A stretch of 29,332 bases of DNA from an uncultured Pseudomonadales bacterium (GTDB lineage: Bacteria > Patescibacteriota > Microgenomatia > UBA1400 > CAYNFZ01): NCBI GenBank assembly GCA_964396725.1, contig CAYNFZ010000002.1, positions 1-29,332 on the forward strand. The letters run 5' to 3'. Under the pieces are notes generated by a model. That model did no database searches. It was not told where the DNA came from and worked only from the letters and a program-made list of their open reading frames with translations. Numbering within the stretch: position 1 is the first letter of the stretch; the number at the start of each line of letters is the position of its first letter. Below, one piece after another: positions 652 through 7,417 of this stretch. The translations under genes were made by a program, and so were the position numbers.

Positions 652-2094
652 TCACTCGACTAGGTTGACGGTACTAGATAAGGCTTGTTGGAGGCGGGTG
701 AGGGTAGTGGTCTTGCCTAGGAAAGTTAAGGTTTCAAATAAGGGTGGAGTTGTAGCTTTTCCGGTGACGCTAAGACGGATCATCATGAAGTATTGGCTTT
801 TGTGCCAGTTTTTTTGTTCTTGAAGCTGGCGTATGGCGGATTCGATGTGGGGAGAGGTCCAGGAAGAAAGTGATTTTAAGGATTTGATGGTGGTTTCGAG
901 TTGGTGATGAACTTCGGGAGCGGTGGATTTTTTGAGAAGGAGGTCTGGATGTGGAAGTTGATAATCGGAGATGAAGCTGGTGAGATGGGTAAAATCTGAG
1001 AGTTTGGTGAGACGATCTTGGATAAGAGGGACGACTTGGGAGAGTTTGTGGGAAGGGAATCCAGAAGGAAGATAAGGTTTGAGGCGTTGAGTAAGTTCTT
1101 TAGGGGAGAGCTTTCTAATGTACTGGCCGTTGTACCAGTCGAGTTTGTCGAGATCGACGACGGGTCCCTGGATGTGCATGTCTTTCCAATCGAAGTGGTG
1201 GATTAATTCTTGAAGGGAGAAGATCTCTTGACCTTTGGGGTGGTTCCAAACTCTGGTGGCTAAAAAGTTGAGAGTGGCTTCGGGTATGTAACCTTGGTCA
1301 CGGTACCAAGAGACAGAAGCATGGCCGTGGCGTTTGGAGAGCTTGGAATGGTCGGGATTACGAAGAAGGGGAGTGTGGATGAACTGGGGTAGTTTCCAGC
1401 CAAAGAAACGATAGAGGAGGATGTGTTTAGGGGTGGAACTGATCCATTCTTCGCCGCGGACAACGTGGCTGATGTTCATTAGGTGATCGTCGACAACGAC
1501 GGCTAAGTGGTAGGTGGGAAAGCCGTCGGATTTGAGGACAACTTGATCGTCGACGGTGTTACTGTCGAAATTGATCTGACCACGAATGAGATCAGTGAAG
1601 GTGATGGTTTGATTGGAGGGGACATGGAGACGGACGACATGTGGTTGGGTTTGGGCTCGGAGGGCAGATTCTTTGGGGTCGAGGTGGAGGCAGTGTTGGT
1701 CATACATGGGAGGTTTGCCGACTTGTTGCATTTCTTGTCTGACTTGGGTTAATCGTTCGGGGGAGCAGAAGCAGTAATAGGCATGGCCTTGGTCGATGAG
1801 GGTTTGGGCGTGTTGCTGGTAAATTTCGAGGCGCTGGGATTGGCGATAAGGACCAAAGTCGCCACCGTAGACAGGACCTTCGTCGGGAGTGAGCTGGAAC
1901 CATTCTAATGCTTGGTAGATAGCAGATTCGGCATCTGCAACAAGGCGAGTTTGGTCGGTGTCTTCGATACGGATAAGGAATTGTCCCGAATGTTTATGAG
2001 CGAAGACATAGTCAAAGAGAGCTTGGAAGACGGTGCCGATATGAGGCATGCCGGTGGGCGAAGGGGCGATACGAGTGCGAATTGTGGAGGACAT
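652..2094 (-). CDS. gltX: Glutamate--tRNA ligase
   Basis: RTRIAPSPTG, HIGT (HIGH motif), LRIEDTD-like segment, CFCS, VVDDHLMNISHVVRGEEW, KLSKR (KMSKS motif) and a C-terminal anticodon domain (SPPLFE-like TPPLFE). Confidence 0.98.
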   Translation of the reverse strand: MSSTIRTRIAPSPTGMPHIGTVFQALFDYVFAHKHSGQFLIRIEDTDQTRLVADAESAIYQALEWFQLTPDEGPVYGGDFGPYRQSQRLEIYQQHAQTLIDQGHAYYCFCSPERLTQVRQEMQQVGKPPMYDQHCLHLDPKESALRAQTQPHVVRLHVPSNQTITFTDLIRGQINFDSNTVDDQVVLKSDGFPTYHLAVVVDDHLMNISHVVRGEEWISSTPKHILLYRFFGWKLPQFIHTPLLRNPDHSKLSKRHGHASVSWYRDQGYIPEATLNFLATRVWNHPKGQEIFSLQELIHHFDWKDMHIQGPVVDLDKLDWYNGQYIRKLSPKELTQRLKPYLPSGFPSHKLSQVVPLIQDRLTKLSDFTHLTSFISDYQLPHPDLLLKKSTAPEVHHQLETTIKSLKSLSSWTSPHIESAIRQLQEQKNWHKSQYFMMIRLSVTGKATTPPLFETLTFLGKTTTLTRLQQALSSTVNLVE

Positions 2095-4582: not shown

Positions 4583-6418
4583 TTATTTGGAGAAGCTGCC
4601 GGTTTGAGGTTGTTCGGCGCGAAGATAGTCGGAGAGAGACATGGAGATGGTGTGATCGTGTACGCCGGGGTTGAAGTTGATGGTGGTTTGTTGAGTCAAG
4701 GCTTTGTCTATGAAGGTGGGGAGATTAAAAAGAGATCCGAATGGGGGAACGGCTCCGATTTTAACTCCAATTGTTTGTTCGACTTCTTCAGGTGAAGCCA
4801 GGCGGAGGTCGTGAATGTGGTGGAGTTGTTTTAATGCTTTTGTATCGACTTTGGTGGCGGCGGAGACGACCACAAGAATGGGGGATTTATCGGCGATCAT
4901 GACTAAGGCCTTGGCTCCGGTGGCAAGACTAGCGCCACGAACACGAGCGGCTTCCTCAGAGGTATGGACTGGTTGGTGAGAAGTAAGAGAGTAGGGGATG
5001 TTCAAGGAGTCGAGTTTGGATTTGAGTTGATCGAGGACGGAGCCGGAGGATGGGGTTTGATTGAGAGAGATGCCGAGTTCTAAGAGTTGAGCGGGATCGA
5101 GAACTGAGGGTGCATCCATGACGGAGGTACGGCCACGACCTGTTTGGGGAAAAGCTTGGACTTCGCGAATGTATTCTTCTCCTAGATGAGCCATGAGTAA
5201 TCGTTCGAAGCCATGGGCACAACCGCCGTGGGGTGGAGTGCCGAAGGAGAAGGCGTCGAGCATGTGGCCAAATTTTTGGTCGATTTGGCGATCTTGGTAA
5301 CCCATGATTTGGAAGACACTACGGAGAACTTCGGGCTTGTGGGCGCGGATACTGCCACCAGCAACCTCGAGACCGTTGCATACGAGGTCGTATTGGTTGG
5401 TAATAATTTGATCGATGTTTTGTTGGTTGAGGAGCCAATCGAGGTGGTCGTTTATGGGTTGAGAGAAGGGGTTGTGGGTGAAGGTCCAAGATCCGTTTTC
5501 GGTTTTTTCGAAGAACGGAAAATCGATAACCCAAGCGAAAGAAAGAGTGCCGGCTTGTTTTTCTGTTTCGGTTCTCAAGTCGAATTTGTCAGCACCGTAT
5601 TTTTCCATGGCTTGTTGGTAGGTAACGACGGGGAAGGGAGTGGAGGCAATATTGGCATCAATTTGTTGACAAGCATGAATGATCATTTGTTCGATGAGGT
5701 TCATGACATCTTCTCGAGAAACGAAACTCATTTCCAGGTCGATTTGGGTGTGCTCAAAGGCGCGATCGGCACGGGGATCTTCATCTCGTAAACAACGGGC
5801 AACCTGGAAATAGCGTTCGAAACCAGCGGTCATGAGTAATTGTTTGTATTGTTGAGGGCTTTGAGGAAGAGCGAAGAATTTACCGGGTTGAAGTCGACTG
5901 GGGACAACAAAGTCGCGTGAACCCTCGGGGGTAGATTTGGTAAGTATAGGAGTTTCGATTTCGGTGAAATTTTGGGAGAAGAGATATTCACGAGCGGCTT
6001 TGATGTAAGCGGAGCGAAGTTTGATGTTTTTTTGGAGGCGTGGTCGACGTAGATCGAGGTAACGGTGTTTAAGTCTGATTTCTTCGTTAATATCGAGTCC
6101 GTCGGTATCTTTGGGGATGGGGAGGGGGGCTGAGGGGTTAAGGATAGAAAGGTGGGTGGCGACTAACTCAACTGTACCGGTAGCCATGTCAGGGTTGGTC
6201 ATGGACTTGGGGCGCAGGTTGATTTTTCCGATAACTTCGACGACGTCTTCTTGGGAGGCTTTGGTGTCTTTGGTGGTGACAACTTGGAGGATGCCAGAGC
6301 GATCTCTGATGTCGAGAAAAACGATTTTACCGTGATCGCGTCTGGTGTTGACCCAACCTTTGATAGTAACTGACTCGCCTACTTTGGCTGGCGTGTCGGT
6401 GATGAGTGTGCGATTCAT
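4583..6418 (-). CDS. aspS: Aspartate--tRNA ligase (compact) fused to a C-terminal YbaK/ProX (INS-superfamily) domain
   Basis: OB fold (GWVNTRRDHGKIVFLDIRDRSG), LKHRYLDLRR, motif 1, LPQSPQQYKQLLM, motif 2 (CLRDEDPRADR), motif 3 (PPHGGCAHGFERL). The last ~155 aa show H..V.T.EEAA...GAKAL...GAVPPFG...FNPG, the YbaK/ProX pattern. Confidence 0.97.
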   Translation of the reverse strand: MNRTLITDTPAKVGESVTIKGWVNTRRDHGKIVFLDIRDRSGILQVVTTKDTKASQEDVVEVIGKINLRPKSMTNPDMATGTVELVATHLSILNPSAPLPIPKDTDGLDINEEIRLKHRYLDLRRPRLQKNIKLRSAYIKAAREYLFSQNFTEIETPILTKSTPEGSRDFVVPSRLQPGKFFALPQSPQQYKQLLMTAGFERYFQVARCLRDEDPRADRAFEHTQIDLEMSFVSREDVMNLIEQMIIHACQQIDANIASTPFPVVTYQQAMEKYGADKFDLRTETEKQAGTLSFAWVIDFPFFEKTENGSWTFTHNPFSQPINDHLDWLLNQQNIDQIITNQYDLVCNGLEVAGGSIRAHKPEVLRSVFQIMGYQDRQIDQKFGHMLDAFSFGTPPHGGCAHGFERLLMAHLGEEYIREVQAFPQTGRGRTSVMDAPSVLDPAQLLELGISLNQTPSSGSVLDQLKSKLDSLNIPYSLTSHQPVHTSEEAARVRGASLATGAKALVMIADKSPILVVVSAATKVDTKALKQLHHIHDLRLASPEEVEQTIGVKIGAVPPFGSLFNLPTFIDKALTQQTTINFNPGVHDHTISMSLSDYLRAEQPQTGSFSK

Positions 6419-6421
6419 GAT

Positions 6422-6614
6422 GAGCCCTTAATAATTGGTTGATAAACAAAAAGGTGCCACCTGATTGAAGGGTCTCTTGATAATAAGAGACGGTGCCACC
6501 TTGTAATACTTGTTCCTGCTGTGACGGGCTTACCCGGCCTGGTTTGGTGCGATGACTTCTCCCAAGCAGCGTACCTAGATTAAGGTCGTCCAGTGTCAAT
6601 GGACTGATGACGCT
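6422..6614 (-). ncRNA. T-box riboswitch (Asp), ultrashort Stem I, probably translational
   Basis: Antiterminator AAGG-UGGCACC-GUCUCUU(AUUAUC)AAGAGAC-CCUU (6502-6468). Stem IIA CGGG(UAAG)CCCG with an F-box-like CCGUCA. Stem II GCUUGG/CCAGGC. Stem I GUCCA(UUGACAC)UGGAC with GAC at 6597-6595. Directly upstream of aspS. Confidence 0.85.
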
Positions 6615-6629
6615 TTTGTAATTGAAATG

Positions 6630-6658
6630 ATTTTATCCAGACTAGGCTTTGTGGTCAA
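6630..6658 (-). promoter_or_regulatory. sigma70 promoter for the T-box/aspS transcript
   Basis: Minus strand TTGACC (6658-6653), 17 nt, TAAAAT (6635-6630). The predicted TSS falls about 10 nt before T-box Stem I. Confidence 0.75.
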
Positions 6659-6676
6659 GGTGAGATAAATGTGGAT

Positions 6677-6705
6677 TTGACAGATCCATGTTAGCTGGTT
6701 ACAAT
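6677..6705 (+). promoter_or_regulatory. sigma70 promoter for the leader/orphan transcript
   Basis: TTGACA (6677-6682), 17 nt, TACAAT (6700-6705); near consensus. Confidence 0.8.
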
Positions 6706-6728
6706 GAGGGGCGGAAATTGAGGAAGCT

Positions 6729-6803
6729 ATGAATAATTGGCACTACACCATGATTAACCTTTCGCTTCAAGTCGGAAATGACTTGAGGAGGTTGGTGGTG
6801 TAA
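6729..6803 (+). CDS. Putative attenuator leader peptide, 24 aa
   Basis: MNNWHYTMINLSLQVGNDLRRLVV*, with a GAGGA SD at 6720-6724. It overlaps mutually exclusive hairpins. Confidence 0.6.
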   Translation: MNNWHYTMINLSLQVGNDLRRLVV

Positions 6804-6865: not shown

Positions 6866-7417
6866 ATGAACACATGTGAGAGTGAAAATAGAAAAGTGGA
6901 GCGGCGGAAAGTGCCGGAGGTGGTACGTGAGGTGGAACCGGCGTTGGTGACAATGATTGATCAGAAACAACATGTATTGGATTGTCTTGATAATAATAAG
7001 GAGGCGATAAGGTGTATGGGAATGGAAACGGTGGATCGATTGGAGGAACAGAATTTTATGGGGATGCAGATGACATTGTTTGGTAAAGGGATTGAGGTTA
7101 TGGAGTGGGTGAAGTTGAGGGATAATAAGGAAAAACAGAGGCGGTTGGTTGAAGTGGGATTGTTGATAGGAAGTTATGCTTGCTTGATATTGAAAAATGA
7201 ACTAAGGTTTTTGCTTGATGATGCGTGCTTGCTTCGAGCTGGAGGGGAATTGAGTGAGTATACGAGAAATAAGGTGAATGAAATGGAAATATGGCGAGAA
7301 CAAGTTAATGGTAATGGTAGATTCGAGGATGATCTGGACGCGATGGTGCGACGAGCTAGAGAATGGTTGAGATCTAGAGGTTTAGAATTGGATGGTGAGT
7401 GGGATGATTTTAGGTAG
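6866..7417 (+). CDS. Hypothetical protein, 183 aa
   Basis: ORF with a GAGGA SD (6858-6862) that fills the gap before the convergent recJ. Looks helical; no family recognised. Confidence 0.75.
   Translation: MNTCESENRKVERRKVPEVVREVEPALVTMIDQKQHVLDCLDNNKEAIRCMGMETVDRLEEQNFMGMQMTLFGKGIEVMEWVKLRDNKEKQRRLVEVGLLIGSYACLILKNELRFLLDDACLLRAGGELSEYTRNKVNEMEIWREQVNGNGRFEDDLDAMVRRAREWLRSRGLELDGEWDDFR

Follow-up and report, generated by a model that had tools for sequence, protein, structure and literature searches.

A reduced T-box riboswitch in the aspS leader of a Patescibacterium that probably senses tRNA-Asp and acts by transcription attenuation

Here we describe the leader of aspS, the gene for aspartate--tRNA ligase (AspRS), on the minus strand of a 29,332-nucleotide (nt) stretch of DNA from an uncultured Patescibacterium (contig CAYNFZ010000002.1 of assembly GCA_964396725.1; this whole stretch is hereafter called the window). 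Judged from its sequence and from those of its relatives, the leader is a genuine, reduced T-box riboswitch. It probably senses tRNA-Asp, belongs to a type common in Patescibacteria and controls aspS through transcription attenuation. The evidence comes from the sequence elements themselves, their conservation and covariation, the fixation of the specifier codon, the discriminator base of tRNA-Asp in relatives and the energetics of the competing folds. An initial annotation, made from the letters of the window alone, had proposed an Asp-specific T-box upstream of aspS in a probable Patescibacterium, and all of the elements that it listed exist at their given positions in the minus-strand reading of 6300-6760. 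The T-box identity, the gene and the host were likewise borne out: matches to the Rfam T-box family RF00230 elsewhere in the genome have the same core and T-box motif and the helices covary, the gene product scores 590.7 bits against the NCBIfam aspS model, and the relatives of the AspRS all come from metagenome-assembled genomes (MAGs) of the Patescibacteria/candidate phyla radiation (CPR).

In the mechanism that we propose, transcription would start near 6623, and the GUC anticodon of tRNA-Asp would pair with the codon GAC (6597-6595) in the apical loop of a 5-base-pair (bp) hairpin that stands on a three-way junction. The anticodon arm is probably held with the help of Stem II and the IIA element. 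If the tRNA is uncharged, its 3' GCCA would pair with UGGC (6498-6495) and stabilise a weak antiterminator, and RNA polymerase would then read through into aspS. If the tRNA is charged or absent, a downstream copy, GGUGGCACCUU (6461-6451), would capture the T-box strand itself; the resulting nested hairpin and the U5-G-U3 tract behind it would end transcription ~25–30 nt before the start codon.

Specifier domain, antiterminator and their conservation in relatives

A BLASTN search with the leader found its conserved core in 78 of the 201 genomes of the order, often in several copies per genome, and aspS lay directly 3' of the core at 10 of the 29 loci that were fetched from other genomes. Further, aspS was located in 125 of the 201 genomes, and 80 of its upstream regions were fetched regardless of any leader; a covariance model built from 14 aspS leaders matched 24 of these 80 unselected regions. 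With the window and the earlier loci included, the model matched 44 leaders in total, 43 of them from relatives, and the design described here is common to these 43 related patescibacterial aspS leaders. The T-box on aspS is thus patchy in the order, yet widespread. The element also occurs in other CPR groups, for example in MAGs of Nomurabacteria and Saccharibacteria.

The alignment of relatives that the initial annotation had suggested shows that the helices are conserved and covary. When all helices of the 44 leaders were considered, 97% of the alignment cells were paired, compared with 76% in shuffled alignments, and compensatory, both-side changes were found in 12 of 16 pairs. By helix, covarying pairs made up 5/5 of Stem I, 3/4 of A1, 3/3 of the modelled pairs of A2 and 1/4 of IIA, the remaining IIA pairs being invariant. 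This alignment is model-fitted and leans towards the model; the ungapped Stem I test and its slid controls do not. In the ungapped Stem I alignment (21 sequences and 21 columns), 86.7% of the stem cells were paired compared with 58% after shuffling, compensatory changes were present in all five pairs, and pairing was much lower when the partner strand was slid.

The Stem I domain (6568-6614, on the minus strand like all features of the leader) comprises 47 nt and forms a three-way junction, both in the minimum free energy (MFE) fold of the window and in the folds of relatives. According to the MFE fold, the junction is closed by a base helix, P1 (AGCGU 6614-6610 with ACGCU 6572-6568), and carries a small hairpin, P1b (ACCU 6586-6583 with AGGU 6576-6573). 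The specifier hairpin (6588-6604), whose 5 bp (GUCCA 6604-6600 with UGGAC 6592-6588) are supported by covariation, presents the 7-nt loop UUGACAC (6599-6593), in which the Asp codon GAC (6597-6595) is followed by a conserved A (6594). In single-sequence folds of relatives a base helix encloses the specifier hairpin, often together with a second small hairpin, and the Stem II hairpin comes after. The base helices of relatives differ in sequence (AUCCU/AGGAU, ACCU/AGGU, AACGU/ACGUU and CAGCUC/GAGCUG), which supports a covarying P1 helix, forming a three-way junction, as the base of Stem I. The initial annotation had drawn Stem I with an extension, GUC[AUCA]...GAC, and had named the AGCGU/ACGCU junction as a caveat; the extension was rejected because the relatives favour the covarying base helix, and it is the caveat that recurs in their folds. 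By contrast with the extension, the description of Stem I as ultrashort and without an elbow-binding distal platform was correct, and the hairpin has 4–6 bp across the family. In many relatives the specifier hairpin is flanked by UGA on its 5' side and by GA on its 3' side; these flanks look like a K-turn, which would be degenerate in the window, where CA stands on the 5' side.

As for the specifier loop, its A, C and A are invariant in the ungapped alignment, and the preceding G is found in 19 of the 21 sequences. The loop reads GAC in 37/44 leaders (followed by A in 32 and by G in 5) and AAC in 3/44; in the other 4/44 it was not read by the automatic rule. Inspection of these four by eye gave a GUGACG hairpin in L204 and AUAACA in L057, and L030 is cut by a contig end. 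The apical-loop GAC, which had been put forward as the specifier from the window alone, is fixed in relatives and replaced by AAC only. Because the AspRS of many bacteria also charges tRNA-Asn, GAC and AAC are both codons that make sense for AspRS. GAC leaders of aspS occur in Firmicutes as well. The genome of the window has its own asnS (438.9 bits, above the cut-off), which fits an Asp specifier here.

The AAC leaders (L016 from G199, L157 from G152, L191 from G154, and L057) would suit a nondiscriminating AspRS. A link between an AAC specifier and the loss of asnS was considered and dropped: three AAC and two GAC relatives are all without an above-cut-off asnS, and there is no simple correlation. 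Directly 5' of the asnS of the genome (G000 C56, L230 1000-1435) lies the apparent C-terminal end of an amidase/GatA-type gene, and no T-box motif was found upstream of this asnS.

The antiterminator (the ON fold; 6468-6502, −8.8 kcal/mol alone) agrees with the fold first proposed. It consists of helix A1 (AAGG 6502-6499 with CCUU 6471-6468), the conserved 7-nt T-box bulge UGGCACC (6498-6492) and helix A2 (GUCUCUU 6491-6485 with AAGAGAC 6478-6472, closed by the loop AUUAUC), and both helices covary across relatives. The bulge is UGGCACC in 32/44 leaders and UGGUACC in 7/44. Consistent with the earlier suggestion that UGGC fits G73 of tRNA-Asp, all 25 tRNA-Asp(GUC) genes examined in the order carry G73, which complements the C of UGGC. 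The match is common and not strict, as the seven relatives with UGGU form a G-U wobble with G73. These UGGU leaders are L150, L159, L177 and L214, all of family f8, and L013, L152 and L157; the tRNA-Asp of two f8 genomes carries G73.

Between Stem I and the antiterminator, the initial annotation had placed Stem II, a IIA hairpin and an F-box-like CCGUCA, and these are present as described. Stem II (6537-6567), identified from sequence and MFE, pairs GCUUGG (6567-6562) with CCAGGC (6542-6537) around a 19-nt loop. As had been cautioned, no AGUA S-turn is found in this loop in the window (6561-6543). Relatives have a hairpin at the Stem II position, mostly with an 8-nt purine-rich loop, and L185, L169 and L009 do carry AAGAAC...AGUAGAAC in Stem II. 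In some very compact aspS T-boxes (L024:1471-1563, L017:1490-1580 and L010:1488-1598), Stem I through the antiterminator takes up ~91–111 nt; L024 and L017 have no recognisable Stem II, and Stem I is linked to IIA by GAGUUGGAAC or CAGUUGGAAC alone.

The IIA region (6503-6536, including a 5-nt linker) has a near-invariant core in the alignment. Its hairpin, CGGG(UAAG)CCCG (6536-6525), is followed by UCACAGCAGGA, and the F-box-like CCGUCA is joined after IIA by a conserved AGCAGGA..AAGU string. The one compensatory pair of this helix is the closing pair, in which C-G is changed to U-A in 2 leaders. As for Stem III, which canonically has a flanking purine string (RRRxG-Stem III-AA), no hairpin was found within the 26 nt between IIA and the bulge, although the purines AAGU persist there; IIA and the bulge are 26–30 nt apart in 25/33 leaders. 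Evidence for a IIB pairing is partial, in that the base in the IIA loop and the downstream GCN base co-vary in only part of the sequences. The two bases in question, position 3 in the loop UANG and the central base in GCNGG, form a G/C combination in L016 and L069 and an A/U combination in L012 and L052; in most sequences A faces A. The joint changes are a hint that a IIB pseudoknot may form.

Upstream of Stem I lies a sigma-70-type promoter, TTGACC-17-TAAAAT (6630-6658, 10/12 match), as the initial annotation had noted. Its position is conserved in relatives: a promoter site with at least 9/12 matches is present no more than 70 nt 5' of Stem I in 74% of the 43 leaders, compared with 8% of control windows, and the −10 box of relatives ends ~12–38 nt before the hairpin region. 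From this promoter we infer the transcription start near 6623. The conserved promoter 5' of Stem I argues that transcription starts upstream of the specifier, as had been assumed.

Off-state of the switch and rival explanations

The predicted off-state is a terminator (6444-6502, minus strand) that is the MFE structure of the nascent RNA at −22.7 kcal/mol. In this fold, AAGGUG.CACC (6502-6492) pairs with GGUG.CACCUU (6461-6451) through 10 bp that flank a single G-G mismatch. A2 persists as a hairpin nested within this structure, and a U5-G-U3 tract (6452-6444) follows the outer hairpin directly. The second GGUGGCACC copy (6461-6453) and the U-run after it had been missed in the initial annotation, and they provide a far stronger alternative fold: compared with −22.7 kcal/mol for the terminator fold, the antiterminator alone has −8.8 kcal/mol, a helix sequestering the Shine-Dalgarno (SD) sequence has −7.0 kcal/mol alone, and the best fold containing that sequestrator reaches −13.1 kcal/mol. 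The second GGUGGCACC was also considered as a second T-box and rejected, as no A1/A2 helices follow the copy.

Similar hairpins are found in the relatives. Within 110 nt of the antiterminator, 39/44 leaders have a run of five or more U, compared with 32% of random control windows, and the predicted hairpin ends 0–2 nt before the U-run in relatives; the other 5/44 leaders have interrupted U-runs or a cut alignment. The distance from the end of the U-run to the start codon is 14–222 nt (median 40), and the U-run always comes before the SD. In the window, an SD-like AAGGG (6429-6425) and the start codon of aspS (6418-6416) lie 3' of the terminator, within 6416-6432, and because the U-run ends 29 nt before the start codon, the SD is outside the switch.

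Canonically, A1 and A2 contribute their 3' strands to form the terminator (PMC7583486), and this published design is seen in 26 of the 39 U-run leaders. In the remaining 13, of which the window is one, the terminator takes its 5' strand from the A1/bulge strand, as judged from the outermost helix of the MFE fold. The closest relative, L144, has the same design (GGCACCU/AGGUGUC followed by U7), as does another T-box of the same genome, L003 (GGUACC/GGUACC followed by U6). Here the terminator's 3' strand and the 3' end of the tRNA would be in direct competition for the bulge.

The initial annotation had instead proposed a translational T-box, in which 6476-6464 pairs with 6432-6422 and hides the SD, and in which the hairpin and U-run would have to be incidental. 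The helix does exist: it comprises 11 bp of complementarity with two bulges, and its duplex energy of −11.1 kcal/mol corresponds to z = −2.35 compared with shuffled SD regions. Further, known T-boxes with a short Stem I mostly act on translation (PMC10482949, PMC7583486), and the predicted ensemble of the full-length leader has the SD bases 6427-6423 mostly paired. However, their partner in this ensemble is the IIA strand and not the antiterminator strand, and the fold with the sequestrator helix is much weaker than the terminator fold (−13.1 versus −22.7 kcal/mol). Nor do relatives conserve the complementarity of the SD region with the 3' strand of the antiterminator (median z 0.02, with 4/44 leaders below −2), and part of it is automatic, since A1 (AAGG/CCUU) looks like an SD/anti-SD pair and so supplies five base pairs for free. 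In relatives, the hairpin and U-run separate the switch from the SD, at a distance that varies. Because the hairpin and U-run are kept and the SD pairing is not conserved, transcription attenuation appears to be the conserved mechanism, and control of aspS by SD sequestration is quite improbable.

A combination of the two, with attenuation as the main control and escaped transcripts refolding such that the sequestrator helix or the IIA strand masks the SD, is unlikely, though a little less so. Both alternative pairings are present in the window, and its z of −2.35 is among only 4 such cases in the 44 leaders; the extra translational layer would therefore be specific to the genome of the window. 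Yet nothing requires such a layer, the terminator fold leaves the SD free, and even L144, the closest relative, does not conserve the pairing and has no AAGGG in its start region. The proposal that we find hardest to credit is that the leader is a decayed relic that does not bind tRNA and serves only as a constitutive attenuator or as a stabilising 5' structure. Parts that are called essential in the literature, namely the platform, the S-turn and Stem III (PMC7583486), are indeed missing and no Rfam match is obtained, but many families of the order retain this reduced design, with compensatory changes, with the codon and the bulge UGGC both fixed, and with a constant spacing between IIA and the bulge. 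It is because GAC/AAC and UGGN were held under such divergence that a relic is so doubtful.

Several observations weigh against an attenuator that senses tRNA-Asp. Transcriptional T-boxes are said generally to need the long Stem I platform, which lets them catch the tRNA before RNA polymerase arrives at the terminator, and Stem III is described as indispensable to the charging sensor (PMC7583486); the aspS leader has neither. The A2 pair next to the bulge is G-C and not the G-U wobble that has been described, at the base of A2, as the steric sensor of charging (PMC7583486). A search of the whole genome with ARAGORN at default settings found no tRNA-Asp of its own in the 162-contig assembly. 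The terminator carries a 10-nt internal loop in addition to the G-G mismatch, only five U precede the G of the U-tract, and a simple terminator scan did not flag the leader. RF00230 gave no match on the window, either at its gathering score (93 bits) or at E ≤ 10, so that the RF00230 search that the initial annotation had suggested for the leader region detected nothing. The scan can be expected to miss this terminator because it is a nested hairpin with an internal loop, and across the window the scan found no more sites than in shuffled sequence and is uninformative either way. The RF00230 miss is explained by the lack of Stem III and by a 5' domain even shorter than those of the other T-boxes of the genome. 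Separately, a low-stringency 'tRNA-Asp' at window positions 1113-1195 was dismissed as coding-looking sequence.

Relation to known T-box classes and to other T-boxes of the genome

The short-Stem-I ileS T-boxes of Actinobacteria are named class III in one scheme (PMC10482949) and 'class II, translational' in TBDB (PMC7778990). Class III T-boxes, such as that of N. farcinica ileS, have a short Stem I without the platform and a specifier in an apical loop of 5–6 nt, and depend on Stem II; classes III and IV 'mostly' regulate translation (PMC10482949). Like the ileS leaders of Mycobacterium tuberculosis and Nocardia farcinica, the aspS leader combines a short Stem I lacking the double T-loop platform with an apical-loop specifier followed by a purine, a Stem II and putative IIA/B element that follow directly, and a UGGN bulge. 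It differs from them in amino acid, gene and lineage (Asp/aspS in Patescibacteria versus Ile/ileS), in the size of the loop (7 nt versus the 5–6 nt described) and in the placement of Stem I on a three-way junction with an extra hairpin. It has neither Stem III nor a recognisable AGUA S-turn, whereas in the ileS type the S-turn of Stem II (GAA...AGUA) clamps the codon-anticodon duplex. Finally, its off-state would be a terminator hairpin with a U-run and not an SD sequestrator. Of the class II architecture assigned in the initial annotation, the ultrashort Stem I with an apical specifier therefore stands, but the SD sequestration does not.

Compared with canonical class I T-boxes (RF00230, of the B. 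subtilis tyrS type), the aspS leader would share the tRNA-dependent choice between antiterminator and terminator, and it has in common with them GAC followed by a purine, the F-box/IIA element, a UGGN that would match the discriminator and a synthetase as target. Asp-specific leaders are among the TBDB specifiers of the canonical class (PMC7778990). In contrast to that class, it has no long Stem I, internal specifier loop, distal platform or Stem III, and its K-turn appears degenerate, with CA for GA on the 5' side where relatives keep UGA...GA. Its terminator uses the T-box strand as 5' strand and keeps A2, whereas the canonical one uses the 3' strands of A1 and A2 (PMC7583486). The glyQS-type T-box ('class II' in PMC10482949), the reduced transcriptional form known so far, is likewise a natural, reduced T-box that acts through a terminator, as the aspS leader is predicted to do. 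The reductions are the reverse of each other: glyQS keeps the long Stem I, platform and Stem III and is without the Stem II domain, whereas the aspS leader is without the platform and Stem III and keeps Stem II and IIA.

Elsewhere in the genome, RF00230 has three full-length, sub-threshold matches (38, 32 and 28 bits; range 27.7–38), all on the minus strand (L001 640-822, L002 605-768 and L003 1501-1678). The genes 3' of them are a class I synthetase fragment, argS and another class I synthetase. Common to the leader in the window and these three are the block CCGGGUAAGCCCGU.A.AGCAGGA and the T-box motif, AGGUGG(U/C)ACC; compared with the three, the aspS leader is without Stem III and its 5' domain is even shorter. 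L001, L002 and L003 end in hairpins whose 5' strand includes the T-box bulge bases, followed by U6. In the window itself, the matches of the Rfam scan were confined to the opposite strand; they were weak, C/D-box snoRNA-like and due to chance.

The TBDB class II (translational) model was run only on Actinobacteria and on class I matches with a truncated Stem I (PMC7778990). Full-text searches for literature joining T-boxes with Patescibacteria, CPR or Saccharibacteria returned nothing relevant, in keeping with the initial statement that no T-box reports were known from this lineage; no paper linking T-boxes and CPR was found. On T-boxes that pair a short Stem I with a terminator, only the reviews already cited were found. 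We rate the principle and the parts as known, and the combination and the lineage as undescribed.

The aspS locus and implications of a minimal T-box

The regulated gene, aspS, extends from 4583 to 6418 on the minus strand, and its product has the Pfam domains tRNA-synt_2, tRNA_anti-codon (OB domain) and tRNA_edit. The match to tRNA-synt_2 (PF00152) is one continuous stretch of residues 111-426. The C-terminal 130 amino acids of the AspRS (4583-5050, minus strand) form a YbaK/ProX-type tRNA_edit domain (PF04073, E = 1.8e-29, residues 481-600). The open reading frames (ORFs) of aspS in the order fall into two size groups, ~460–500 and ~620–660 amino acids, and the tRNA_edit fusion would therefore occur in only some genomes. 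Upstream of the leader, a divergent, near-consensus promoter, TTGACA-17-TACAAT (11/12; 6677-6705, plus strand), faces an ORF of 183 amino acids (6866-7417, plus strand) that has no Pfam match.

On the wider significance of the leader, our judgement is evenly divided over the proposal that Patescibacteria possess a distinct, minimal class of co-transcriptional T-box without elbow platform, S-turn or Stem III, with a recurrent subtype, including the aspS leader, in which the 3' strand of the terminator and the 3' end of the tRNA contend for the bulge strand while A2 stays folded. If this is true, parts that are regarded as indispensable for kinetic control and for the sensing of charging would be dispensable in nature, and the leader, whose span from the Stem I base to the last base of the U-tract is ~170 nt, would represent a minimal transcriptional T-box of natural origin; some relatives are even shorter. 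Because the family is conserved and covaries across the order, a small RNA from nature offers a direct test of whether the platform and Stem III are required. Standard annotation, by Rfam or by the TBDB class II search restricted to Actinobacteria, would be missing synthetase regulation in a very large group of uncultivated bacteria. For the organism, the sequence implies that the expression of aspS would be tied to the charging of tRNA-Asp even in a genome of 1.3 Mb.

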